Source: Eledone cirrhosa (lineage: Eukaryota). From it: DNA of 64,000 nt. The stretch is taken from assembly GCA_964016885.1 (NCBI GenBank), contig OZ024745.1, forward strand, positions 44,454,001-44,518,000, given 5' to 3'. The notes under the pieces were generated by a model. The model was given only the letters and a program-made list of their open reading frames with translations. It was not told where the DNA came from and ran no database searches. Position numbers and translations under genes: made by a program. Shown here piece after piece: positions 2,597 to 64,000 of the stretch (position 1 is the first letter of the stretch; every line of letters starts with the position of its first letter).

Positions 2597-3366
2597 ATAC
2601 AGACACATATTGTCTAAAATATTATAATTACATAGTTCAAGACCTACTCACTATTTCCACTGACCCATTTTAACAATACAGTTATGTTTTACTGGCAATA
2701 TAATTGTTTTTAATTCCTTAACAATGTTAGTAAAATCTTATAACTGCTTAGATCACAGATAAGAGTGTTTCAGAAGAAACTAACCAGCGAGGCTATGATT
2801 TTTGGTGCGTAGGTCCGTTCTACTATTTAAAAAAATGAAAAACAAATAGGTATGTATTGGAAGCTAGTATACTGTTTACAATGGTATATGTGCAGTTCAT
2901 TAGTATCTAGTATAGTCTCAAGTTCAGGAAGTTAATATTGCTGTATTTTTTATAGGCAGTGAATTGGCAGTCATTAGAATGTTGGATAGAATGCTTTATA
3001 GTATTTGTTCTGGCTGTCTGCTCTCAAATCCTGCCGAGGTCAACTTTGTTTTTCATCCTTTCGAGGTCGGTAAAAAAAAGTACCAGTCTTACTGGGGTCA
3101 ATTCTTCCTCTCTGGAAGAAATCTGCTATATTCAGGCCTGTAGAGAGATGGGCTCTGCCAGGTTTTAAATACCCCAAAATGCTGTATGGTGCCCCTACGA
3201 CTCTATCAGGAGTTACGGGACCATACCATACCATTTTTTGTTCAAATCACTAAGTATCAATCTCCTTATCCGTCTTATTTTATCTGTTTCACTTAGCTGC
3301 AAATGTGTAATTCAGTTAGATATTACATTATATCAACCTACCACATTTTCCTCTTATTTAACACAG

Positions 3367-3490
3367 CCTGGTAAATATGTTCGTGTAAAAATGAATGTGT
3401 CACTGGCCTGTCAAACATTAATTGAACCACCAGATGATGGAGAGATCACCCGAGACAATATAACATGCAAAATCACATATACCGCCAATG
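3367..3490 (+). CDS. CERT1: CERT START domain exon ([41 protein letters not shown])
   Basis: acacag acceptor, gtaagt donor at 3491. Matches CERT VRAKINVAMICQT..PP...EISRDNILCKITYVAN. Phase 0 to 1. Confidence 0.95.
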
Positions 3491-4837
3491 GTAAGTTGTT
3501 AAAATTTTATTGATAAATTTGAATAATATGAATAAACTATAGTCTTGGAAGTTTTTGTGTGTGTGTGTCTGTGTGTTTATCATGCCTCATACACTGTTTA
3601 CTTTCCTGGCATTTCTACATTATTCTATGTACTATACATGCACCTTTGATGAGTTGTAGTGCATCTGAACACTTTATCTAATAATTTTCATTATTATTAT
3701 AATGATTGGTTGGTAGTCAGAATAAGGATTTTGAAGAAATTCAAGAAGATGCATCATTGCAGATTTAAGAACAATTCCCCACTGTTTAAATTTTGTATAA
3801 CCCCCCCATCCCAACAGTTTCTTAAGTTTAAAGTATTAAAGGGCCTTTTTGGATATAAGCAGCAACTATTAGTTCATTTATTGCCTTTAGCAGAGTGCAC
3901 TGTTACAAACATTGAGGCCAGGTGTCTGTTCTGAGGATAACTTCCTACTACCAGTTACAGTAGTCCTGAAAAAGGTCATGGGTGCTGCTTATGCTTCTTT
4001 AGACTAAGTTGTGTAAAAGGCTTACAGATTAACAGACAGGATTAACATGAATAGAGATATGAACTATCATAAGAACCATATCCAATTGGGCTGTTGAGAC
4101 ACCAATGGCGACTTCATGTAAATAAATTTATCCAAACTCAGTTTACAGTGATCCATATTTTTCTATATGCACTCACTCTAATCTGTAAGATGGTTGTGCA
4201 GGTGCCATGACAAAAAAACACCTAGTATACCCTGTGAATATGTACGTTAAACAATGATGATGATTTTTCTAAGTTATATATTTATGCCACAGACAAAAGT
4301 AGTGTTACTGGCCCGATACAATATAAATACATAGTGGTGAGCAGAGGCTTAAATTGCTTAAAATGTTTTTTTCTACCATCCTCTGCCCCCCCCCCCCCCC
4401 CCCCCCCCCCCCAATAGCATGGAAGATGGACGTTAAACGAGGATGATGATGATGACTAATAACTCATTTGAAAAATGTTCATTAGTCATGTTAAATTTAT
4501 ATTCCATAAGAGAGATACCTAAAGGGAAAGAAAAAATGGCTTTTGACACAGAGATCCAGTGCTGTTTTTATTTATATATTTTTGCTAATCAACTAGTAAA
4601 GTATTTATTTTTTAAACCATTTTCCCTATTAGTTAATGCTTACTAAGCTATCGAATCTGCAGTGTTTGTGTGTATTACATTTATCAAGGTTCATAAGGCA
4701 GTATTAGAGATAATTTTTCAAAATAACAAGCTAAATGCATATACCTTACAGTATTTAGTGAGATCACTTCACATTTCCAGTTCGGATCTCACTGAAGTTG
4801 ACTTTGCTTTTCATTTCACCAGGGTTGGTAAAATTGA

Positions 4838-10234: not shown

Positions 10235-10559
10235 CACATGGCTTAGTGGTTAGAGCATTGGCCTTGCAATCGAAAGGTTATGAGTTCAATTCTCAAACCG
10301 GGTGATGTGTTGTTTCCTTGAGCAAGACACTTTATTTCACATTGCTACAGTTTACTCAGCTGTAGAAATGAGATAAGACTGGGGTCCCTATCATTCCACT
10401 GCAAAGTGGACGTGTAGGCGCCACGGACAAAAAAAAAGCACCCAGCACTCACTGTAAATGAGGTTGGTGTTAGGAAGGGCATCCAGCTGTAGAAATCAAG
10501 CCAGAATCAGTTCCCGTCCCACCCTTGCAAGCAAGGAAAAGCGGACGTAAAATGATGAT
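10235..10559 (+). mobile_element. CORE-type SINE, close copy of 2251-2596
   Basis: Near-identical head, core and tail to the 2251 copy. Inserted in a TG/TA microsatellite. Confidence 0.85.
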
Positions 10560-36785: not shown

Positions 36786-39103
36786 ATCATCATCATCATC
36801 ATCAACGTTTAACGTCCGTGTTCCACGCTTGCATCGGTTTGGACGGGGGTTTTCCCACTTGAGGCAAGAGTGATTGTCTTGCTCGCATAGGACTGTCTGG
36901 CGGGTTTTCTACAACTGGATGCCCTTCCTAACGCCAACCACATTTACAGTGTGGGGCTGGGAGGTTTTTACCGTGTTGCCTACACAGCCACATTACAGCG
37001 TGGACTGTCTGGCGGGTTTTCTACAGCTGGATGCCCTTCCTAACACCAACCACATTTACAGTGTAGGGCTGGGAGGTTTTTACCGTGTTGCCTACACGGC
37101 CACATTACAGCGTGGACTGTGTGTTTTTTTGTCGTGACACCTACACGATCTCATTTGTTTCGGCCTGGATGTTGTGGCACCAACATAACTTTACAAGGGG
37201 GGGGGTGGATGGGGTGGGGGTGGTGGGACGGGGGTGTATTTTGTTAGAGATGCCTACTGACTGTAGTAGGTTTTACTTTGTATTTAGGTAAGGTGGGTCT
37301 TCTCTATTACTGAGTACCGCCAAAGGTCTCGGTCCAGTGACATTGTCTTGGAGAGGTGTAAGTGTGCGAGGTCGGAATTTATCAGCTCGTCCCAGGTTTT
37401 TCTGGGTCTGCCTACTCTGTGGCTACCGTCTATCTTTATTGCCCTGCACTTTGTTATACAGCTATCGTCTTTCATGCGCATCACGTGACCATACCAACGT
37501 AGCCTTCTCTCGAGTAAACAACATCTGATCCCTCTTATTTCTAATTTTTTCCTTAGTTCGTTTATGCTTTGTCGTTCACGTATATTACTATTACACATCC
37601 AGCGGAGCATGCAAGCTTCGTTCCTCTCTAGTCTGCGTATATCCTCTGCACACAATGCCCAGGTCTCACTGCCATGCAACATTGCTGTTCGTATGCAGGC
37701 ATCATACAACCTGCCTTTCATTTTTAGGGAGAACCCTTTAGCGGCTAATAGTGGTATAGGCTCTCTGAACTTTTTCCATCCAGTTCTGACTCTAGCTACT
37801 GTACTTTCAGAGCACCCGCCCCCACTGCTGATTTTGTCACCCAGGTAACGGAAGCTGTCCACTATTTCTATAGAACCCTCTGCGCAATTGAAAGAGCTAG
37901 TATTTTGTGGGCACTTGCTGCTACTTATTGCACCAGAGCACCGGCCACATGTAAAATCTATGTTCTTAGTTAGCTTACCTGTGATCCCACTACATCTTTT
38001 ATGCACCCATACTTTGCATTTGGGACATAAAATGGAGTTTCTACCTACGCCTTTCCTACACACTGAGCATGGCCACTTCCCGGAAGGGACCGCCGCCTTA
38101 TTTTCTTTCTTACAAACTAGAACTTTAGTCTTAGCCAGGTTAATTTTAAGGCCTTTTGATTCTAGGCCGTGCTTCCATGTTTGGAATTTCTTCTCTAGCT
38201 CGGCCATTGATTCAGCTATGAGTGTTAGGTCATCTGCGTATAGGAGTTCCCATGGGCAGCCGGTCTTGAACTCCTCTGTTATAGCCTGAAGGGCAATAAT
38301 AAATAGTAGGGGGCTAAGAACAGAGCCCTGATGGACACCAACTTTTACGCTAAACTCTTCACTATATTCGTTGTTAATTCTAACCTTGCTGACTGTTTCT
38401 TTATACATGGCTTGTATAGCTCTCACAAGCCATTCGTCAACACCTAGTTTTCTAAGAGCCCACCAGATAATGGAACGGGGGACTCTGTCGAAGGCTTTCT
38501 CCAAGTCGACAAAAGCTAAGTATAGGGGTTTACTTTTAGCTAGGTACTTCTCCTGTAGTTGTCGTACAATGAAAAGAGCGTCTGTGGTACTTTTGCCTGA
38601 CACAAACCCGAACTGCATTTCATCTAGATCAATTCTCTCTCTGATTAGTTGCGCTATTACTTTTTCTGTGACCTTCATGACCTGGTCGATTAATTTAATG
38701 CTTCTATACTTACTCCTATCTAGGGCATCTCCTTTACCCTTATAACAGTTAACGATAATGCTGCTACGCCAGTCCTTCGGAACAACCCCATTCTGTACGA
38801 CTTGGTTAACTATCTGGGTGACCATGGTGTGTCCCACCGTTCCAGATGCCTTCAGCATCTCAGCAACTATTTCCGAAGGCCCAGCCGTCTTACCCGTCTT
38901 CATATCTTTGATTGCCTTACTTATTATACTACCCTCGACTAACACTGCTGGTCCCTCTATTGGGTCGATGTGGGGGAGACTGTCTTTCTCCCATTTATTC
39001 TCCTCATTTAGTAGCCTTTCGCAGTGACACTTCCAAGCTACCTTCTTATCAGCGTCAGTGATGGCAAGTACGCCGTCATCATTAAGTACACACTTCTCCC
39101 CGG
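36786..39103 (-). mobile_element. Young 5'-truncated RTE-clade LINE
   Basis: Frame open from ~39100 to the stop at 37284. RT motifs FVDLEKAFD, GVHQGSVLSP and LYADD. 3' UTR has a ~110-bp internal duplication and a (GAT)n tail. Confidence 0.95.
37284..39100 (-). CDS. RTE reverse transcriptase (N-truncated) with embedded C4HC3 PHD-type finger
   Basis: The ORF-track 553 aa extends upstream without stops (GEKCVLNDDG...). Finger: CSVC..CPKC..H..C..CGRC. Confidence 0.85.
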
Positions 39104-39738
39104 AAGCTTGAAACTAGTACAGCGTTCCTTTGTCAGTGTTGAACAAAAGAGCAACGATGGTTGCTAAACACTGTACGGCTTAATTCGGGATGTTTGTTTA
39201 CAAACACACCGAGCATTATAATAAATGTTCGGTAAATCCATACGTACATATATGTATGTGTGCATGTATGTATATATATATACATACTACTGTACGTCGT
39301 ATACATATATGTATGTACGTATACATACTTATAATTAATTATTTCGTTACTAGGAAAGTAACATATGGTTCCTATTTAAAATTACGTTGGAAGACATTAA
39401 TTTAAAAAGATGATTGGGTTTGTTTCATAGAGCCAGAGGTGGTTTTGGGTGGCTAATTCTGGTAAAATAATAATAAAAAATAAAAACAGGCTGGCTAACA
39501 TATTTATTAAAATCTAGCTCTAATACATTTTCAAATATTAAGTGTCTGTGTTAAAATATATTATAAAACAGGAAATTTACCCTCCACTTCCTCCTTTATT
39601 ATAGTGAAGTTGTGTGGCCTAGTGGTTAAGATGCTGGTCTCACAATTGTAAGAAGAAGGAGGAGGAGGAGAAGAAGAAGAAGAAGAAGAAGAAGAAGATG
39701 TGATAAGGTTTTAAGCTATTACATAAGTATTTACATAC

Positions 39739-42689: not shown

Positions 42690-42811
42690 CTGAAAAATAT
42701 CAGAATTGAATTGATAAATACTGTGATAGCTAAAAAATCTTATGCAGCATATAATTCAATTTTTTTTGTCAACTGAAATTTTGGTCGTTTTCTCCCTTGC
42801 TGCTTGTTAAA

Positions 42812-42918
42812 ATAATTGTTTCTACTTTAGGCACAAGGCCAGCAATTACCCAGTGCATTACTGGTACTTTATTTATCCACCCCGTAAGGATGAAAGGCAA
42901 AGTCAACCTTGGCGGGAT
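42812..42918 (-). mobile_element. SINE 3' part (second SINE family)
   Basis: Reverse complement of ctttgcctttcatccttacgggg..aataaagtaccagt. Other copies at ~3030, 20250, 32415, 43435, 51160, 57195 and 60355. Confidence 0.75.
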
Positions 42919-43434
42919 TGTTAAAATAATGTTTTGTTAATGCAATTAATTTTCTTTTCATTATGGATACATTATCAATTGATAAAAAATTATTTTTGGC
43001 CCACCATGTCACGAATGGTAGCTTGCATTTAATTATATGTTATCCATGCTGTAGGCAGCCTTGAGATATTTTTACCAATATTAATCTTTTAATATAACTT
43101 CTATATTATGAAGCTGTTTTGCAAGTAAACAGAAATTAAGTATATTTTCCAGTGACACAATACAATATATCATACGATTAGATATATTTTTTTAATGACA
43201 ACATAATATGGAAAATATTAAAATCCTCTTATAATAGATATGACATTATAAGATGTAATACATTAAACTATGATGTAATACCTAGATACATAAAAAATAT
43301 TTCATTTCCTAACAAGTAATAATTCTTTACAAAGCTCAATGGAATATGGTCCCATATTCAATAGTACTGCTATTATATGTGTATTATATGTATATATATA
43401 TATTATATTATATGTATATTATATGACCCTTTAT

Positions 43435-43556
43435 AATCTGAGTTCAATTCCCGCCAAGGTTAACTTTGCCTTTCATCCTTACGGTGTTGATAAAATAAAG
43501 TACCAGTAATACACTGGGATAATTGCCGGCCTTATGCCAAAAGTAGAAACAATTAT
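43435..43556 (+). mobile_element. SINE 3' part, inverted relative to 42812-42918
   Basis: ctgagttcaattcccgccaaggttaactttgcctttcatcc...agtagaaacaattat. Confidence 0.75.
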
Positions 43557-43899
43557 ATGTATGGATATACGTGTGTGTGTATACGGTTCTTATATATTTG
43601 ATATATATTTATCCTTATCTTTGGATTTTAGTCTTCAAATTTATTATTATTACTATATATATATATATATATATATATAGTTTGTCTAGTTTGTGTATAT
43701 GTAAATCTTTATATTTGATAATCTCCCATAAGGTTGAGATGCAATTTGGGCAAAATGCGCTTTCTAGCAACCAGCCTACTAGCCGTAAGGCACCAATCCC
43801 ATTCTTTCTGACTTGACCACTGCCACGTCACAGTTCTTAGCCATTTTGAATTCGTTTCTGGCGGGGATCATTTAAGAAAAATCTTTGTCTAAGTGAGTT

Positions 43900-43982
43900 T
43901 GTTTCCTGATGAGTTCGAAGCTCGAGAATTTATCCTTGATAGGATATTTCCGAAAGCGAACGAAACCCTAAGGGTAGAAACG
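43900..43982 (+). ncRNA. Type I hammerhead ribozyme motif
   Basis: Stem I gtttc/gaaac; CTGATGA 43906-43912; stem II gttcg/cgaac, extended by tatcct/aggata; GAAA 43962-43965; stem III ccc-taa-ggg; GUA cleavage triplet ending at 43976. Confidence 0.85.
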
Positions 43983-44337
43983 TAATCCTGGTATGTGTAT
44001 ATGCATTTTTTCTTCTAACTTTAATTTTATACCTAATTGTGTATGGTTGACGATATATTTAATCACGTGCTATTGAAATGATATATAAATATTCTATGGC
44101 TGTTGATCGCGAATAAATGGCTATAGTTTATTTATCTATTATTTCTTCACAGGTGCCTTTTAATCTTATAGCCTGGTTTAATTGTTTAATTGTGGTTGAT
44201 TATGCTAATTGGGAGAGGAAATTGAGTATATATCTTATCAAATGATTCTAAGGACATAATTTATAGTATATATATATATGTACATATGTGTGTGTATACA
44301 TATATACATATATGGTAGTGTGGAAGATGGACATTAA

Positions 44338-44369
<32 letters not shown>

Positions 44370-44374
44370 ATATG

Positions 44375-44450
<76 letters not shown>

Positions 44451-44571
44451 AATTTATATCTAGTAACATTTATATACATACAGATACATATCAATGCTAG
44501 CAAATATATTGAATTATTTTTTAATAAGTTTCCAGAGTCCTCGCTATGCCTGGAAACTTACATGAAAAAAG

Positions 44572-44653
44572 ACTTTCCTGACGACGGAATGCTTTTCTAT
44601 ATATTCTTCGGAAAATATATTTACTCCATTCCAGAAACTAATTAGTTGGAAGT
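44572..44653 (+). ncRNA. Minimal type I hammerhead motif, copy 1
   Basis: Stem I actttc/ggaagt; CTGACGA 44578-44584; stem II ggaatg/cattcc (C.A mismatch at its base); GAAA 44634-44637; palindromic ctaattag as stem III; GUU triplet ending at 44647. Confidence 0.7.
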
Positions 44654-45116
44654 GATATTTTAGTAAGTAAGTCAATTTTATAATTTTTTTATAATTTTAT
44701 AATTTTCTTATCTTACGTCTCTCATATTATTGTTCTGCAACCCCATGCATTGAACCACAACGTTACTAAGGCAAAATCTATATATTTGCTAGCATTGATA
44801 TGCATCTGTATGTATATAAATGTTACTAGATATAAATTCTTTATAATTATCTCCAATTCATTTGTCGAGCAATATTGGCCATGACTGCTGCTATAGTAGT
44901 AGGCAGGCCGCTGTCTTATTAACAACTCGCTTTCCACTGATTGACCTCGATGTCACGTGATTGATTCTTTTTGAATTTGCCACAGACGTAGACGCAGTGA
45001 TTTTCTCAATGGCTGGGATTTCAGTCCACGCTTCGCTATTTTCTTTCCACTGAATTATATTTTTTTTAATAAGTTTCCAGAGTCCTCGCTATGCCTGGAA
45101 ACTTACATGAAAAGAG

Positions 45117-45198
45117 ACTTTCCTGACGACGGAATGCTTTTCAATATATTCTTCGGAAAATATATTTACTCCATTCCAGAAACTAATTAGTTGGAAGT
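45117..45198 (+). ncRNA. Minimal type I hammerhead motif, copy 2
   Basis: Same core as copy 1, offset by 545 nt. CTGACGA 45123-45129, GAAA 45179-45182, predicted cut after 45192. Confidence 0.7.
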
Positions 45199-45265
45199 GA
45201 TATTTTAGTAAGTAAGTCAATTTTATAATTTTTTTATAATTTTATAATTTTCTTATCTTACGTCT

Positions 45266-45336
<71 letters not shown>

Positions 45337-45436
45337 CACTGAATTTGTTTTGCAAGTTTTTTTATATGAAATCGTGTGCTGAAACAAATATTGTTATATT
45401 TGGGGAGGGTCATATTGTTATAATATTGCCAGAAAT

Positions 45437-45720
45437 AATAATAAAACACACTCACTGTTTGGTTTGAATTGGTTTTCACTTCTGTATATTTTATATCCTT
45501 ATAGTTAATTTAGCTGGCAATCAATGTTAATCATTGATTGACCAACAGTTAAAAATATAGATATAAGTATGATAGACTATATATATATATTTATATCTAT
45601 ATTTTTAACCGTTGGTCAATCAATGATAAACATTGATTGCCAGCTAAATTAACTATAAGGATATAAAATATACAGAAGTGAAAACCAATTCAAACCAAAC
45701 AGTGAGTGTGTTTTATTATT
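45437..45720. repeat. Long palindrome: 130-bp arms, ~2 mismatches, 24-bp spacer
   Basis: 45437-45566 is the reverse complement of 45591-45720. Confidence 0.93.
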
Positions 45721-45899
45721 ATTATCTAGCTGGTAGTATCTAGCCCCCTCCACTAGTTCCTACTCTTTACCTGTAAGAGTTGTGATGTTCCATGTTCCCA
45801 TATTCAAGGTTTGCTCCCTTACGAACCCTCTTTGGCATCTAAGAATATGCAATCAAGAACGCATTTGGGGTTCTTCTCTCTTCAGAGAGGTACATTCTC

Positions 45900-46332
45900 G
45901 CGAGGTAGAGAGAATATTTTGCTGATCTCCTAAACCCAACCACACAGCATCTTCTGATGTACATAAGGTACATCTGGGAGCAATGACTAATTTCTTGAAG
46001 GCTGAGGTCACAAGAGCAATTAAAAAGCTTGAATGTGGCAAGGCTGCTGAGGAGGATGAAATCCAGCCTGAGATGTTAAAAGCCTTAAATAGAGAAGGTA
46101 TTCACTGGCTGACTCATATGTGGCAGGTAGCCTGGATCTCTGGAAAGGCACTAGAGCAATCGCTGTCGGGAGTGATAATCCCAATTTTCAAAAAGGGAGA
46201 CAAGAGAGATTCTTCCAATTGTAGAGGAATCTCCTTGTTAAGCCCCCACGGTACAGTCTATGTTAAATGTCTAGCAAAGAGATGCAAGGAGATTGTCAAG
46301 TCCAAGCTAACTGATGAACAATGTGGTTTTGC
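45900..46332 (+). mobile_element. RTE LINE fragment
   Basis: GKAAEEDEIQPEMLK, IIPIFKKGD..NCRGISLLS and EQCGF. Same family as 52458-54356. Confidence 0.8.
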
Positions 46333-46461
46333 CACATATCCTCACATATCCTATGTTGTAGCTTACATTACATGATATATTATGTTCTAACTAATTGAAT
46401 TAAAAGGTAACAATATAGGATTCAATAAAGCTGAAATTCTAATGTAAAGTTGGATACTTAC

Positions 46462-49665: not shown

Positions 49666-49886
49666 TGTCATACATTTTGATATTCATAACACAATGGTGG
49701 TGATGCATTTTTCATATAAGGGCACGCACACACACATATGCACATGCACATGGAGACACACACATACAGACACAGATGCATACATATACACACACATACA
49801 CATACGCATGCACACATGCACACACATGCACATACACACATACTCGTGTACACACACACACACACATGGTACAATATTTTACTTGC

Positions 49887-50009
49887 TTTCAGTACATTGG
49901 TTTTCTTCCATCTCATAGTCCTCGTTACAAGTACATATTTTCCCTTCACAAAAAGCATTATCATCTCTACAAATGTCATCACCAGAGCATTCTGTACCAA
50001 GAAGCTTCT
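49887..50009 (-). CDS. RPTP Cys-rich module B, copy 1: KLLGTECSGDDICRDDNAFCEGKICTCNEDYEMEENQCTE
   Basis: 6-Cys EB-like spacing with CxC. 123 nt, phase 1-1, requires an aa|GCAAGT donor. Confidence 0.82.
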
Positions 50010-51321
50010 CTGAAAAAGATAAATGTGAAATATATTGGTTAGTTGACATCATTGTCATCATTTTATGACTACTATTTATGCTGACATGATTTGGACAGGT
50101 AGTCATAATTTGAGACAAGATGGTTCAGATATCATGCTTTTCTCATATGTTAATATTTTCGTTTGATTTCTATGGGTGGATACCCTTCTTAATGACAACC
50201 ACTTTACAGAGTGTACTGGGTCAATTTTCTCATAACACCAGCACTACCAATTTACAGAGTATACTGGAAAGATTTTCTCATAGCACCAGCACTACCACTT
50301 TGGTGTGTAGTGGGTGTATTTTATTATGGCACCATGACTGGCACTATACAGAGTGTATTTGGTAAACTTTATCATGGCCCAGCACTAGAGAGATAGACAT
50401 GTACTCAGCAAGCCTGAAGAGTTTTCTCTACCCTGTGTTATCTCTGATTGCAAACAACTTTTAAAATGTACTGGATGCATTTTATTTTGGCACCAATACT
50501 AAAGAGTTTGTCAGATCTTTAAATGTTTGTTGAAATTGAATAGTAAATGTCATAACATTAGCTTTCCTTATTTAAAGTAAGCAACTGATCATTATATCAA
50601 CTTGATTATATAAGTCAAAATAAAAAGAATCAGTATTTTGTGAAAACAACTAGAAGTAATCTATATAGCCTTTCAAGTTGTTGTGCACAAAGAATGCAAC
50701 AGGAATTCTTGCAAATTGATAGGTAAACTGAGCAAAGTACATAAAAGATACTGATATAAATATCTACATAAGCAGTGATTAGATGAACACCTGGCATCAT
50801 CACGCCTCTTAAATCTCACTCATTATCAATATCACCATCATCATTATCATTATCATGATCATAATCATTTTAATGCATATTTTACAATGCTAACTTTAGT
50901 TGATCAGGTCAGCAAAGCAAATCACTTTTTGTGGTTTGATCCTGTGACATCTCATTAACTTTCTCATGACAGACATAACAACTTTTTAAATCTTTCCTTA
51001 ATTTGTAATGAGGGCAACTATATGTAGAACTGTGTGTGCCTTTAACTACTTCCTTTTCTTAGCAATGATCAAAGATTAATGTTGTTTTTGAATAGCTAGT
51101 TGGCTGTGGAATACATCTTAACCCTTTAGCATTCATATTACTCTATATTTACTATTAGTTAACCTCGGCGGGATTTGAACTCAGTCTGTAAAGGGACGTA
51201 ACTGTGCTGCAAAGCATGGCGTCCGACCCTCTACCGATACTGCCAATCCACCGCCCTATATAATAATATATATATAATGAAAATTATTGTGTACAGTGTT
51301 CAGGTACACTACTGTGCTTAC

Positions 51322-52457: not shown

Positions 52458-54356
52458 GGGATCTCCTTGTTAAGTCTCCCCGGTAAACTCTATGCTTAGT
52501 GTCTGGTAAAGAGATGCAGAGAGATTGTCGAGTTCAAGCTAGCTGATGAGCAGTGTGGTTTTTGTCCCGGACGCAGCATAGCCAACCAAATATTTACACT
52601 GCGGCAGGTCTTTGAGAAATCATGGGAATATTGCCAAGAGGTATATTCTTGTTTTGTAGACCTTGAAAAGTCATATGACCATGTTCCTCAGGATTTACTG
52701 TGGAAGGTTCTGCAGGAGTATGGGACCGATGGTTAGCTTCTTGTTGCCCTGATGTCTCTATAAGAATGCCTGAGTATTTGTGTTCGAATAAATGGTGCTA
52801 AATCAAAACTATTCAATGTGTGAGTCAGACTCCACCAAGGGTGTATACCTCTCCTGTTCCTTATTTTCATGAACAGGATTGACCTGCCAGTTGGGTTGGA
52901 AGTGGTATCCCGATTGACAGATGTAAACTCAGTCGACTGGAGTTTTCAGACAATATGGTGTTATTTAACTTGACAGAAGGGGATCTCCGACTTGCACTAG
53001 ATAGGTTTAATATTGAGTGTTGCATGGCTGGAATGAAAATCAGTGCTGTAAAAACTGAGACACTTATCCTCTCAAGGAAGCCTGTACAGTGACTCTACAT
53101 GTGAATGGAGTTCCACTGAAGCAGGTGGAGAAGTTCAAGTATTTCCAGGCTATGTTCACGAGTGGTGGAAAGCGGGAGACTGAATTATGTGCAAGAATTG
53201 CAGGAGCTGGTGTAGTAATGTGCCAGCTTCAGCATTCGGTCATCAGAAAGGAGGAAGGTGTAAAAGCCAAACTTGCTATCTTCAATTCGGTATTCATGCC
53301 AACCATTACATCAATCTTCGGTAATGTCTGAAAGAATATGATCATGAATACAAGGGGCCGAAATGGGGTTCCAACAAAGAGTCTTTGGAGTAACATTACT
53401 TGATAGTGTGCATAGTTCAGAGATCAGAGAGTAATATTACTTGATAGTGTGCATAGCTCAGAGATCAGAGAGTAATATTACTTGATAGTGTGCATAGCTC
53501 AGAGATCAGAGAGTAATATTACTTGATAGTGTGCATAGCTCAGAGATCAGAGAGTAATATTACTTGATAGTGTGCATAGCTCAGAGATCAGAGAGTAATA
53601 TTACTTGATAGTGTGCATAGCTCAGAGATCAGAGAGTAATATTACTTGATAGTGTGCATAGCTCAGAGATCAGAGAGTAATATTACTTGATAGTGTGCAT
53701 AGCTCAGAGATCAGAGAGTAATATTACTTGATAGTGTGCATAGCTCAGAGATCAGAGAGTAATATTACTTGATAGTGTGCATAGCTCAGAGATCAGAGAG
53801 TAATATTACTTGATAGTGTGCATAGCTCAGAGATCAGAGAGTAATATTACTTGATAGTGTGCATAGCTCAGAGATCAGAGAGTAATATTACTTGATAGTG
53901 TGCATAGCTCAGAGATCAGAGAGTAATATTACTTGATAGTGTGCATAGCTCAGAGATCAGAGAGTAATATTACTTGATAGTGTGCATAGCTCAGAGATCA
54001 GAGAGTAATATTACTTGATAGTGTGCATAGCTCAGAGATCAGAGAGTAATATTACTTGATAGTGTGCATAGCTCAGAGATCAGAGAGTAATATTACTTGA
54101 TAGTGTGCATAGCTCAGAGATCAGAGAGTCACTCCAGGTAGAGCCGCTACTTCTCCAAATTGAGAGACCACGGCTCCAATACTATGTTGTTAGAATGTCT
54201 CAGGAAAGAATTGCTTGACAGATTTTACAGACAAAAGCAACAGGTAAGAGACCCAAGGGCAGACACTGAGCAACATGGATAACATCCATGAACTTGACTG
54301 GTCATGCTTGGGTGCCCAGCCAGATCAGTTGGAGACGGAAGGAGTGTTTGAAGACT
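52458..54356 (+). mobile_element. Decayed RTE LINE 3' half (duplicated copy 1)
   Basis: EQCGF, FVDLEKSYD, HQG and QVEKFKYF. Interrupted by the 41-bp array. Confidence 0.85.
53390..54127. repeat. 41-bp minisatellite, 18 copies (gtaatattacttgatagtgtgcatagctcagagatcagaga)
   Basis: Direct read. Single copy in the paralog at ~59235-59275. Confidence 0.97.
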
Positions 54357-54451
54357 TTGTCAAATCTTTAAATGTTTGTTGAAATGGTATAGTAAAAACC
54401 ACATACACATACTCGTGTACGCACACACACATGGTACAATATTTTACTTGC

Positions 54452-54574
54452 TTTCAGTACATTGGTTTCCTTCCATCTCATAGTCCTCTTTACAAGTACA
54501 TATTTTCTCATCACAAAAAGCATTATCATCTCTACAAATGTCATCACCAGAGCATTCTCTACCAAGAAGCTTCT
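54452..54574 (-). CDS. RPTP Cys-rich module B, copy 2: KLLGRECSGDDICRDDNAFCDEKICTCKEDYEMEGNQCTE
   Basis: Paralog of 49887-50009, with the same GC donor. Confidence 0.82.
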
Positions 54575-55682
54575 CTGAAAAAGATAAATGTGAAATATAT
54601 TGGTTAGTTGACATCATTGTCATCATTTTATGACTACTATTTATGCTGACATGATTTGGACAGGTAGTCATAATTTGAGACAAGATGGTTCAGATATCAT
54701 GCTTTTCTCATATGTTAATATTTTCGTTTGATTTCTATGGGTGGATACCCTTCTTAATGACAACCACTTTACAGAGTGTACTGGGTCAATTTTCTCATAA
54801 CACCAGCACTACCAATTTACAGAGTATACTGGAAAGATTTTCTCATAGCACCAGCACTACCACTTTAGTGTGTAGTGGGTGTATTTTATTATGGCACCAT
54901 GACTGGCACTATACAGAGTGTATTTGGTGAACTTTATCATGGCCCAGCACTAGAGAGATAGACATGTACTCAGCAAGCCTGAAGAGTTTTCTCTACCCTG
55001 TGTTATCTCTGATTGCAAACAACTTTTAAAATGTACTGGATGCATTTTATTTTGGCACCAATACTAAAGAGTTTGTCAGATCTTTAAATGTTTGTTGAAA
55101 TTGAATAGTAAATGTCATAACATTAGCTTTCCTTATTTAAAGTAAGCAACTGATCATTATATCAACTTGATTATATAAGTCAAAATAAAAAGAATCAGTA
55201 TTTTGTGAAAACAACTAGAAGTAATCTATATAGCCTTTCAAGTTGTTGTGCACAAAGAATGCAACAGGAATTCTTGCAAATTGATAGGTAAACTGAGCAA
55301 AGTACATAAAAGATACTGATATAAATATCTACATAAGCAGTGATTAGATGAACACCTGGCATCATCACGCCTCTTAAATCTCACTCATTATCAATATCAC
55401 CATCATCATTATCATTATCATGATCATAATCATTTTAATGCATATTTTACAATGCTAACTTTAGTTGATCAGGTCAACAAAGCAAATCACTTTTTGTGGT
55501 TTGATCCTGTGACATCTCATTAACTTTCTCATGACAGACATAACAACTTTTTAAATCTTTCCTTAATTTGTAATGAGGGCAACTATATGTAGAACTGTGT
55601 GTGCCTTTAACTACTTCCTTTTCTTAGCAATGATCAAAGATTAATGTTGTTTTTGAATAGCTAGTTGGCTGTGGAATACATC

Positions 55683-57102: not shown

Positions 57103-57386
57103 ATATGTTCTCCCTTTTGGATTCAAGTTAAAACAATGAGTTGGTGGGAAGATAATTCAAAGTTAAAACTATACTCAAAATATAAAAAAATATAATTGTT
57201 TCTACTTTTGGCACAAGGCCAGCAATTACCCAGTGCATTACTGGTACTTTATTTTATCGACCCCGTAAGGATGAAAGGCAAAGTAAACCTTGGCGGGATT
57301 TGAACTCAGACCAATAATAATATATAATAATATATATATAATGAAAATTATTGTGTACGGTGTTCAGGTACACTACCTGTGCTTAC

Positions 57387-60456: not shown

Positions 60457-62840
60457 GAATATCAAGCCGCTACCTGCAGCCTCAGATATTCAGGACATAT
60501 CGGAGGGTTCTTGCTGTTCCCAGCAAGCATGCATTTTGAAGTGTTCCAAAAAGCGGGGCTGGACTAACTTTCTTTAACCATCCTTGGAAACTCTTTGAGA
60601 TAGTACCTAGTGTGCCTATGACAATCGGGACGACTCTGACTTCATGGCAGTTCCAAATCCTTTTTACCTCCCACTTTAAGTCCTGGTATCGGTTAATTTT
60701 CTCCCTCTCCTTCTCTTGCACTCTCTTGTCAAATGGGCAGGCTACATCTACAATCAGGCACAATCTTTTTTCCTTGTTCAAAACCACCAGGTCAGGCCTA
60801 TTGTGTTCCAGTTTCTTGTCCGTCTGTATCCTAAAATCCCATAGCACCTTCACCTGATCATTTTCTATCACCGACTCTGGTTTATGCTCATACCACTTCT
60901 CAGAATGTGGTAAATTGTTTACTTTGCATAGGTGCCAGTGGATCACCCTGCCCATCACATCATGTCTCCAGCCTTTATAGTGAGTCTGGACTAGGTGGTT
61001 ACACTTGGATACAATGTGAGCCACAGTCTCCTCTCTCTCTCCACAGATCCTACACAGTGAGCTAGCCTCCTCCTTGTAAATATGGTGTTTCACTCACTTC
61101 GTTTTGAGTGCCTGCTCTTGCGCAGCCATTAGCATTCCTTCTGTAGCCTTTTTAAGGTCTCCTCTTTTTAACCAGTTCCATGTCTGTGGATCTCTAAATT
61201 CAGTTTTCTCAAAGAAGGTACTATGAAGGGATTTCTCATGAAGGTTGCTCTTCCTCCTTGTTGTTATTTCTTCCTTGGACATCCCCTGGTCTATTGTCCT
61301 GTCCTTCAGTACAGTTCTGAGCATTGGCTCCTTACTATCAGTCACGTATTTGTGCAGGTTGTTTTTCTCCATCTGAACATAGTCCTCTATGTGATAAGAC
61401 CTCTTCCACCTTCATATCTCTTTAAGTAGAGTCTATTGACATCACTCCTCTTGTGGAACATGTTGTAGATAGTCAATAGCTTCCTAGTCTTCCTATCCAT
61501 TTCTTTTTGTTCAGCAACATTCCATTTCAGAATTCCCGCACTGTACCTAATAATAGACACAGCTCGGGAATTCACTGCAATTATGACATTCCTACTATTT
61601 AGATGTGATTTTAATACGCTCCTTACTCTCCTAATGTACTCAGATCTTATCAATTCCTTCATTTTTTTGTTCTTGATGTCATCTGCCTCCAGAACACCTA
61701 AATATTTGTATCCTTCTTCAGTGTCAATTTCCTTTATCATCTCACCTGTTGGTACCTGGATTCCGTTGCTTCTGCTCAATTTACCCCTCTTCATCACCAG
61801 GACTCCACACTTGTTAATACCAAATTGCATACATATATCATTGCTGAAAATACGAACAGTGTCAACAAGCACATCCAACTCCTTGTCACTCTTCCCAAAG
61901 AGTTTAAGATCGTCCATGAAGAGGAGGTGGTTGATGGTAAGCTCTTCTTTTCCCAACTTGTATCCTGCTCTCACTTTTCGCAGTGTAATGGTCAGGGATA
62001 TCAGGGCAAGGACAAACAACAGAGGGGACAGACTATCTCCCTGGAAGATACCTCTCTTGATCTTCACGCCTCCCAAGGATTCTCCACCCGATGTTAATTC
62101 TGTTTCCCAGGACTTCATACTTTTGCTCAACAACTGTCTAATGTTATCTGCCACCCTGAAGATCTCTAGGCTTTTGGTTATCCAAGAATGAGGTACCATG
62201 TCAAATGCTTTTTTGTAGTCTATCCATCCCATGGCGAGACCAGTGTGTCTCCTCTTGCAATTCCTCATTACCATCTTATCAATAAGTAGCTGGTCTTTTG
62301 TACCACGGGACTTCTTTCGGCATCCTTTCTGTTTGTCCGGTAACAAGTTGTTTGTGTGGAGGTGATGGTAGATTTCCTCAGACACAATGCTTGTTAACAG
62401 TTTCCACATTACAGATAGACATGTGATAGGTCTATAGTTGGTAACATCATTACCCTTGATTCGGTCTTTCATTACCAGGACTGTGGTACCTTTTGTCAAC
62501 CACTCTGGTACCTCACTCGACATCAAGCAATCATTGAACATGGTTGCTAGTTTCGGGTGGAGGGATGTTATATTTTTAATCCAATACCCCTGCACACCAT
62601 CTGGGCCTGGTGATTTCCAGTTGGTTAGTTTTTTGGCCTGCCCTTTAAGAGTTTCAACTGTGATACTTAAATCAGTTTGTTGGTGTGCTTGTTCACTAAT
62701 CTCCTTTTGTACTGTCTCAATCCACACTGCCTGATCATTATGTTCAACATCCTGCTCCCATATTCCTCTCCAGAATGTCTTAGTCTGTTCTGCCTCAGGG
62801 ATCAAGTCGTTGCCTCTTTCTTTCCCTTCAAGCTGCCCAA
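60457..62840 (-). mobile_element. R4/Dong-like (REL endonuclease) non-LTR retrotransposon, 5'-truncated
   Basis: WKSPGPDG, NYRPITCL, IDYKKAFD, GIFQGDSLSP, LFMDD and EGGRGL. CCHC CRIC..ETVAHIVSKC, RHD, and PD..D..K REL motif. A few in-frame stops. Confidence 0.92.
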
Positions 62841-64000
62841 GTGGTGAGAGTAAACGGTCACCTTTCCGAACCGTTCAAGATCATGCGCTCGGTCCGCCAA
62901 GGATGTCCCCTCTTGCCCCTCTTGTATGTATTGACTCTCGAGCCATTACTGCACAAACTGGAGACGTTGAGGGGGGTCCCGCGTCAGCTAGGATGCGGAA
63001 GATTCGTGTCAGCATATGCGGATGATGTCACTGTAGTGGTGTCGAACGCCAAATACATCGAGGCGATCGGCACTACACTAAGAGAATACGAAGCGGTGAC
63101 AGGAGCAATGATCAACCAGGAAAAGTCGGTGGGCCTGCAGCTTGGCACCTGGAGAGGCAGGTCCATGCCGTCCAACGGCGTCGTCGGGCGCTGGACGGAC
63201 AGACCAGTTAAATTGCTAGGGGTCTGGTTCAGCCCGGACCTCCAGACGGACAAAAACTGGGACGAGGTGACGAGCAGGGTGGCTTCTCTCACCCAGAAAT
63301 GGGCGGAGAGAAAGCTATCCATGAAAGGTCGAGTGGAGGTGGCTAACGCGTACATCGTGTCCGTCATCTACTACCGCCTGACCCTCATGCCTTGTCCTAA
63401 GCCTCGCCTGACTGCGCTGGAGCGTTTGCTCTTTCGCTTTTTGTGGAAGGGACACGCTCCGATGGTCAAGCGGTCCATATGCTGTCAACACCTGCTACGT
63501 GGAGGGCTGGGCATGCCGTGGCTAATGATGCAGACACGCGCTCAGGCTACGACATCTCCACCTCTTCCTCGACGGTGATCAGGTGTGGTCGCCATTTGCT
63601 AGACGCGTCTTTCCCCAGCTCGTCTCCTTGACGGAGCTGCAGTCCTGGGTCAAGCGAAGACCGAGAGGGAGCGCCTGGAGACTGGAATGTCTTCAGGCGC
63701 TCACAGCCCTCGGCCAATTGGGCAATGTGATCGGTGGAAACTCCACCTTGTCGTTCTATAGAGGGTTAGTGGAGGGGAAGAGTGACAACGTACTTGGGGA
63801 AACTCTAGGCGTCGACGAAAATCAACTAGCCAATCTCTTGGGAAGGACTTTCGGGTCGGGGCCTATGGACAACTTCCACAAATCCCTGGCCTGGCAGTGC
63901 TACCGGGGAGCTTTGCCAGTTCGGGATAAACTCTACCGGCATGGAGGTGCCGTCAGCCGGGCATGTCCGAGATGCGCGCAGGGCGACGAAACCGTCCTGC
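62841..64000 (+). mobile_element. 5'-truncated Tx1 LINE, running off the window
   Basis: VRVNGHLSEPF..SVRQGCPL and YADD. Close relative of 22206-25180. Confidence 0.92.

Follow-up and report, generated by a model that had tools for sequence, protein, structure and literature searches.

The window analysed here, a stretch of 64,000 nucleotides, carries a hammerhead ribozyme motif at 43900-43982. This raises the question of whether the motif is a real hammerhead, what kind of DNA brought it there, and whether it does anything for the gene in which it lies. Its parts were assigned as follows.

43900-43982, + strand: type I hammerhead motif, with predicted cleavage after A43976 in a GUA triplet (descriptor scan and fold)
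43900-05 and 43977-82, + strand: stem I, TGTTTC with GAAACG, 6 bp with U.G outermost
43906-12, + strand: core CTGATGA, read from the sequence
43913-17 and 43957-61, + strand: stem II, GTTCG with CGAAC, 5 bp, the first pair being G10.1-C11.1
43918..43956, + strand: 39-nt extension of stem II, an internal loop plus an interrupted hairpin by fold
43962-65, + strand: core GAAA, read from the sequence
43965..43975, + strand: stem III, an A-U plus three C-G pairs (4 bp) with a 3-nt loop
43975-76, + strand: U16.1 and A17, the predicted cleavage position

The conserved core elements CUGANGA, GAAA and UH were all present, surrounded by three helices of 6, 5 and 4 bp, with helix I open-ended (type I). 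A strict type I descriptor run on both strands matched this motif alone in the 64-kb window and found no core in 200 dinucleotide-shuffled windows. When stem II was permitted a mismatch at its base, extra motifs appeared only at 44578 and 45123; the shuffle control covers the strict descriptor, and these two relaxed matches stand without a shuffle figure. The minimum-energy fold of the 106 nt from 43890 to 43995 was the hammerhead. Its folding energy was modest (z = -2.12, with 5/200 shuffles equally good), and the hammerhead share of the fold ensemble was 0.38 in this segment and 0.01-0.16 in five other flank contexts. The initial annotation had claimed a complete hammerhead with every core base, which the strict descriptor, the shuffles and the minimum-energy fold all bear out, and the descriptor scan placed the predicted cut after A43976 as it had.

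That AT-rich repeat DNA matched the hammerhead pattern by chance could be argued from the modest folding z-score and from Rfam, which returned no hammerhead at the gathering score or at E up to 10, its matches near the locus being low-score miRNA-type hairpins. Furthermore, the pattern of core plus stem II alone was found in 3 unrelated bacterial contigs in a scan of prokaryote genomes. These contigs, however, lacked stems I and III by eye and were dropped as chance matches. The hammerhead pattern scan gave 0 matches in metagenomes and 0 in viral contigs; an 18-nt motif occurred at 57 metagenome loci, and 0/60 loci examined aligned past 35 nt. The empty shuffles speak against chance, as does a related neighbouring element with the same layout in the same relative place and a different sequence. 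We consider the probability of a chance match negligible, and 43900-43982 confirmed as a real type I hammerhead by sequence and secondary structure, with ribozyme activity only putative.

The distinctive feature of the motif is the distance of 49 nt between its core halves. No terminal loop was found at the usual loop II position, where the canonical fast form makes its tertiary contact with helix I; an internal loop follows the 5 bp of stem II instead, and the distal part of helix I paired weakly in the fold. Stem III is a perfect palindrome around one central A and can pair with a second copy, the calculated energies being -2.9 kcal/mol for the hairpin and -14.8 for the self-duplex. A duplex with the stem III of the neighbouring element reached only -2.4, so the neighbour would be unable to serve as the pairing partner.

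The surrounding gene contains a phosphatase exon 83% identical to receptor-type protein tyrosine phosphatase (RPTP) proteins of Octopus and Argonauta, which points to an octopod as the host. The octopod homologues mapped onto minus-strand exons of the window by tblastn.

50-57 kb, - strand: EB-module exons (octopod RPTP proteins)
near 46541-46449, - strand: transmembrane exon (individually weak, E 0.48)
near 42733-42629, - strand: exon after the transmembrane exon (also weak alone, E 1.0)
below 41.6 kb, - strand: PTP exons (strong matches)
42734..46448, - strand: RPTP host intron after the transmembrane exon (edges approximate)

The transmembrane match and the one after it, weak singly, are collinear with the strong PTP exons. 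As the motif lies on the + strand between minus-strand exons, it is intronic and antisense to RPTP, which agrees with the initial annotation, and, as also stated there, a motif on the opposite strand could not cut the RPTP pre-mRNA in cis.

The gene and its surroundings showed several other features. Between about 49.7 and 59.5 kb the RPTP gene appears to be tandemly duplicated: the EB-module exons at 49879-50124 and 54444-54689 are near-identical, a second EB-like exon recurs at 51.3 and 57.4 kb, and the RT fragments at 52500 and 57839 match each other. LINE remnants were present in RPTP introns at 22.1-31.4 kb, 37284-39113, 60482-62874 and 62.8-64 kb; one has an endonuclease and an RT (presumably L1/Tx1-like), one an RT with a PHD finger (presumably RTE-like), and one an RT with a restriction-like endonuclease end. 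Minisatellites with periods of 39, about 23 and 41 nt occupy 47.9-49.6 kb, 51.4-52.4 kb and 53.2-54.3 kb. A fold-back, MITE-like element at 45434-45723 has 137-nt arms that are 98% complementary and 16 nt apart, with a TA centre. A short dispersed repeat, which we take to be similar to octopus SINEs, occurs at 43437-43518 and 57229-57310 (94%, inverted orientation), with similar text near 42820-42915, and a tRNA-like head scored at 10239-10296. Exon-like frames on the + strand at 1410-1688 and 3169-3513 appear to belong to a further gene, convergent with RPTP; we take them to resemble the START-domain end of ceramide transfer protein.

An intronic position, an intact core and a GUA site might suggest a ribozyme domesticated by the host to regulate RPTP in the manner of the amniote RECK hammerhead, e.g. 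by trimming antisense RNA, and intronic domesticated hammerheads do exist (PMC6155905). RECK-type ribozymes are judged by low copy number, sense orientation to the pre-mRNA and conservation at the orthologous site. The motif here is antisense and sits inside a high-copy repeat, in an intron full of other repeats, and the pre-mRNA strand of the 42734..46448 intron contained one CTGANGA and no hammerhead. We regard domestication as extremely unlikely.

The repeat that carries the hammerhead is delimited as follows.

43654..43679, no strand: (TA)13 run, 5' junction and probable target site (read from the sequence; other copies have non-TA sequence here)
43680..44266, + strand: high-copy repeat, a 5'-truncated copy (contig alignments; the 44266 end was read from the TA run), probably the 3' end or pseudo-LTR of a Penelope-like element (PLE)
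44267..44279, no strand: TA run, 3' junction

TA runs thus border the 587-bp unit on both sides, although the window is TA-rich throughout and the borders are therefore supporting evidence only. The unit had been described as about 550 bp, ending at 44230 beside a TA repeat; it is indeed discrete, but its extent is 43680-44266 and TA lies on both sides. Words of the unit were found in 12/16 listed sequencing runs, four of which (X1, X4, X6 and X10) were aligned to it. No RNA run was listed among those with its words, an outcome that carries no weight for expression. Contigs aligning to 43680-44262 numbered 2682 in X1, 47 in X4, 8 in X6 and 2 in X10, the X6 and X10 contigs being low-depth and too few to tell family presence in those organisms. 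Likeness to the unit ranged from 80 to 100% in X1, with 503 contigs at 99% or more, 792 at 95-99, 916 at 90-95 and 471 below 90, and contigs covered 30/30 bins of the unit in X1 and in X4. These counts, which are of contigs and give no copy number, show a large diverged family. In the 3' half of the unit summed depth exceeded that of the 5' half about 2.4-fold in X1 and 1.8-fold in X4, as expected from truncation; depth is no copy number either, and this was not counted as evidence. Contigs from X4 (2), X6 (1) and X10 (1) ran upstream past 43681-83 with a common motif, not TA, which indicates that the copy in the window is 5'-truncated. The unit is a dispersed, 5'-truncated member of a large diverged repeat family.

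Variation within this family bears on the ribozyme itself. The 13 core bases and stem I were unhit by the 40 listed of 115 differing places, which is not significant (P 0.16 by chance). At G43913 (position 10.1), T accounted for 17911 of 32933 summed X1 depth, about 54% (56 contigs). The G-C pair opening stem II, noted in the initial annotation, is thus correct for this copy but is not a family trait. The listed stem III changes, T43969C and an A inserted after 43969, affect the loop and not the three G-C pairs, and a diverged X1 loose end behind 43927 is still able to pair over the stem II arm, by eye. Within the window, blastn detected no second copy of the unit, and neither a tandem nor an inverted structure at 43680-44266. 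No back-joint was among the 4 joints listed for the 2682 X1 contigs, a weak result since the contigs are short.

The two relaxed descriptor matches belong to an adjacent element that resembles the unit over part of its length.

44444..45268, + strand: neighbouring sister element, consisting of an inverted 70-nt fragment, a 213-nt 3' copy, a 546-nt copy and then (TA)n (blastn)
43680..43873, + strand: segment of the unit with collinear similarity to 44808-45003 of the neighbour (123/179 aligned columns identical)

The 213-nt and 546-nt copies end at the same base and form a partial tandem. The neighbour carries two hammerheads with C.A at 10.1/11.1 (44578 and 45123 by the relaxed descriptor); their stem III is fully palindromic, ACTAATTAGT. 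Comparison of the descriptor matches upheld the view that the unit and this pair have a common layout, with a long stem II, a short stem III and different sequence. The two had also been taken for independent hammerhead families. They are distinct repeat families, but independence is not supported in view of the collinear similarity upstream of the ribozyme, which 0/1000 shuffles equalled in all three scorings with regions chosen afterwards. With regions unselected, 2/200 shuffles reached the score of the whole-unit local alignment, and the numbers of window tiles scoring as high as the upstream alignment were 0, 0 and 6 of 624 in the three scorings. Downstream of the ribozymes there was no similarity between unit and neighbour, 283-289/300 shuffles scoring equally. 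A 13-nt motif of the family's loose ends, partly deleted in the 43680-44266 copy, had its best window match in the neighbour at the aligned place (11/13). With some 190 bp upstream of the ribozyme collinear between them, we consider it more likely that the two are diverged sister families than that they arose independently.

We looked to the ends of the unit and to the neighbour for coding traces of a parent element.

43680..43721, + strand: possible last codons of a parent ORF, with TGA TAA at 43716-21 (a weak candidate from the loose-end frame)
43991..44152, + strand: putative intron-like segment, GTATGT followed by a pyrimidine tract and CAG (motif scan)
44075..44145, + strand: long hairpin within the intron-like segment (fold of 44060-44160)
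44202..44266, + strand: ATG plus short frame, possible ORF start of the next tandem unit (a weak candidate)

In X4 and X6 the loose ends spell AK..IYLR in a frame continuing into 43680, and their mutual differences are synonymous. The neighbour frame has AKSIYLL, and the X10 loose end has a stop in the AK..IYLR frame. The neighbour's 546-nt copy starts with a 53-codon frame containing L.P..LN, one of 2 matches to this pattern in the six frames of the window. The pattern resembles the PLE endonuclease ends in Fig. S2 of PMC8557442, among them those of Neptune and Naiad, as a motif only and in a frame that is unproven. Protein searches, including phmmer, found no relatives of the 53-aa frame; the sole phmmer match, P0013, is a tandem-repeat protein and was rejected as an artefact. 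As a remnant of the parent ORF the neighbour frame is a lead only. Pfam was run on 125 frames: 120/271 short frames, which all lie within 34.8-60 kb, and 5 long frames of LINEs. It identified no GIY-YIG domain; the only domains were RVT_1, PHD and Exo_endo_phos, all of them in LINE remnants. Neither a reverse transcriptase nor an endonuclease could be tied to the family, and no parent ORF was found in 43680-44266.

Downstream of the predicted cut, the 44060-44160 segment folded at -30.6 kcal/mol (z = -5.0, 0/100 shuffles), and of 9 listed family variants in the hairpin, 7 keep the pairing and 2 break a pair. The neighbour has donor-like hexamers 16-20 nt past its own cut site, where the chance level is 193/5100 25-nt tiles. 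The frame after ATG 44202 meets a TGA at 44223-25; the majority of the family has other letters at 44223 and 44225, which make this a sense codon. A GIY-YIG start at this ATG was considered and dropped, the frame being short and AT-rich with no cysteines. These post-cut features may represent a retained 5' intron, of the spliceosomal kind that some PLEs keep upstream of the ORF, followed by the start of the next tandem unit.

We consider it probable that the unit is the 3' end (pseudo-LTR, or pLTR) of a (TA)n-targeting PLE. The hammerhead is on the sense strand near the 3' end of the repeat, and TA runs flank both unit and neighbour. A PLE-type partial tandem with an adjacent inverted fragment, the arrangement described for PLEs (PMC8557442), was seen in the neighbour and not in the solo unit. 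PLE pLTRs are reported to bear type I hammerheads with a larger helix II and a small palindromic helix III (PMC4209133). Membership of the unit among PLEs is likely on these sequence features, with the defining single ORF for a PLE reverse transcriptase and a GIY-YIG endonuclease not found.

Known PLEs offer partial parallels. According to PMC8557442 and its File S2, Hydra-clade PLEs have type I hammerheads on the sense strand near the 3' end, insert into (TA)n, have a stem III palindrome with a 1-nt centre, and show a pair or a mismatch at 10.1/11.1, often T.T or T.C; the G43913T family variant resembles these states. A Hydra-clade hammerhead is already tabulated from Octopus bimaculoides (Hydra-1_Obim; PMC8557442, File S2). 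In contrast to the loop II of 3-10 nt in File S2, the extension here is 39 nt; the DNA of Hydra-1_Obim differs from the unit, which has 290 nt after its cut site, and the clade's cysteine-rich endonuclease end (CxxC, CxH) is missing by eye from the sister element's unproven frame. None of 4 motifs from published octopus consensuses matched the window, and by eye the unit is unlike Naiad_Obim, Naiad_Ovul and Hydra-1_Obim at their 3' ends.

The hammerheads of Penelope, Poseidon and Neptune, as described in PMC4209133 and PMC11167929, share with the unit the larger helix II, the small palindromic helix III, the preponderance of solo truncated copies, and insertions that run on beyond the hammerhead into the following unit. 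Those elements have an intron near the ribozyme, as the unit putatively does; that of D. virilis precedes it, whereas the intron-like segment here follows. Helix II is far longer here, and the stem III (A-U plus 3 G-C), unlike theirs, could hold in a monomer. Long stem II inserts appear in File S2 of PMC8557442 only in two spike moss elements of the PLE-X1 type, with loops of 34 and 29 nt flagged there as deviating. These are plant elements, endonuclease-less and targeting 28S rDNA, and the likeness is one of layout.

The PLE type with an N-terminal endonuclease, Naiad, would also supply a pseudo-LTR, and its hammerhead could have been overlooked owing to distant core halves. Naiads target (TA)n and are present in Octopus, and eight of them, including Naiad_Ovul and Naiad_Esco, are flagged HHR_half_core in the PMC8557442 supplement, with halves 35-50 nt apart, compared to 49 nt here. 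The unit nevertheless has a full hammerhead, while the Naiad clade lacks a canonical one; it did not match the Naiad consensuses in that supplement; and the frame after ATG 44202 has no Naiad endonuclease cysteines. In the sister element the endonuclease-like motif is upstream of the hammerhead, where a C-terminal endonuclease would place it. The Naiads of cephalopods have been characterised as old remnants, whereas 503 X1 contigs are at least 99% alike. We believe a Naiad origin is very unlikely.

A non-autonomous non-LTR retrozyme, present here as a solo monomer with arrays elsewhere, would self-cleave, circularise and be reverse transcribed in trans. Like such retrozymes, the unit is a dispersed animal repeat of low GC with a type I hammerhead, a setting in which the hammerheads are often retrozymes (PMC7229834). 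Retrozymes are known to occur as solo monomers, and their units can reach 972 bp (bioRxiv 10.64898/2026.07.22.740005). The missing ORF, the strong self-pairing of the RNA past the cut site (z = -3.7), and a copy that reads through the cut site, as from a circular template, are all consistent with this origin. It differs from them in other respects. The window holds a single copy and no head-to-tail units, although arrays elsewhere are possible; the few joints listed for the short X1 contigs weigh weakly in the same direction. The family continues upstream of the unit, so that the unit is 5'-truncated from a longer element, and its loose ends keep codon-like conservation. Moreover, the canonical retrozyme layout has a 4-bp helix II with a loop-loop contact, unlike the motif at 43900-43982. 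A retrozyme is therefore an unlikely source, though a better candidate than Naiad. Since the same preprint derives retrozymes from PLE pLTRs, this alternative partly merges with the PLE reading.

If the unit is a PLE 3' end, its history may be sketched as follows. A tandem element elsewhere in the genome would have been transcribed, and the element's protein would have nicked an AT-rich or (TA)n site in the RPTP intron. In an anole PLE, unprocessed RNA serves as template and reverse transcription begins on it at a point downstream of the hammerhead; cleavage required the element's protein, and in vitro insertion did not depend on cleavage (PMC11167929). A similar start, at the beginning of the next tandem unit and on uncut RNA, would account for the 290 nt past an intact cut site; that the template was uncut is suggested by the DNA copy running intact through this site. 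Reverse transcription would have halted 587 nt further on, having just entered the last few codons of the ORF.

The hammerhead's task in the parent RNA would be to process the tandem transcript or to fold it. Because its stem III hairpin is weak and the self-duplex strong, cleavage of the parent transcript by a dimer or with protein assistance appears likely from the energy calculations: the ribozyme would be slow as a monomer and better as a dimer via the palindromic stem III or with the element's protein. An intact core does not guarantee activity, since PLE hammerheads generally cleave poorly in vitro (PMC4209133) and 1/9 frog retrozymes tested cleaved (bioRxiv 2026.07.22.740005). At this locus the hammerhead is most likely an inert passenger and not a gene regulator, because its orientation is antisense to the pre-mRNA, no matching partner lies close by, and it could act only if the + strand were transcribed.

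Hammerheads at PLE ends are established, one of them already tabulated from Octopus, and in this sense the locus itself is ordinary; its long stem II is a variation that has precedents in plants. No literature description of this octopod family was found, and repeat libraries, which lay outside the scope, may already catalogue it. It is possible, though we suggest it only tentatively and with some doubt, that the family belongs to an undescribed octopod (TA)n-targeting PLE lineage of at least 2 sister families and many copies, with active hammerheads in which a conserved stem II extension of 40-50 nt replaces the loop II contact. If this were true, motifs with such long arms would escape Rfam and short-spacer descriptors, and some PLEs published as hammerhead-free, the 'half-core' Naiads, may carry complete long-arm hammerheads. 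Penelope-like elements account for 6.83% of the O. vulgaris genome, and its repeat annotation names no ribozymes; as the long stem II is invisible to Rfam, ribozyme counts are probably too low. For the question of what the hammerhead does in PLEs, a convenient test set would be offered by a family whose stem III is stronger and whose 10.1/11.1 position has two natural states.
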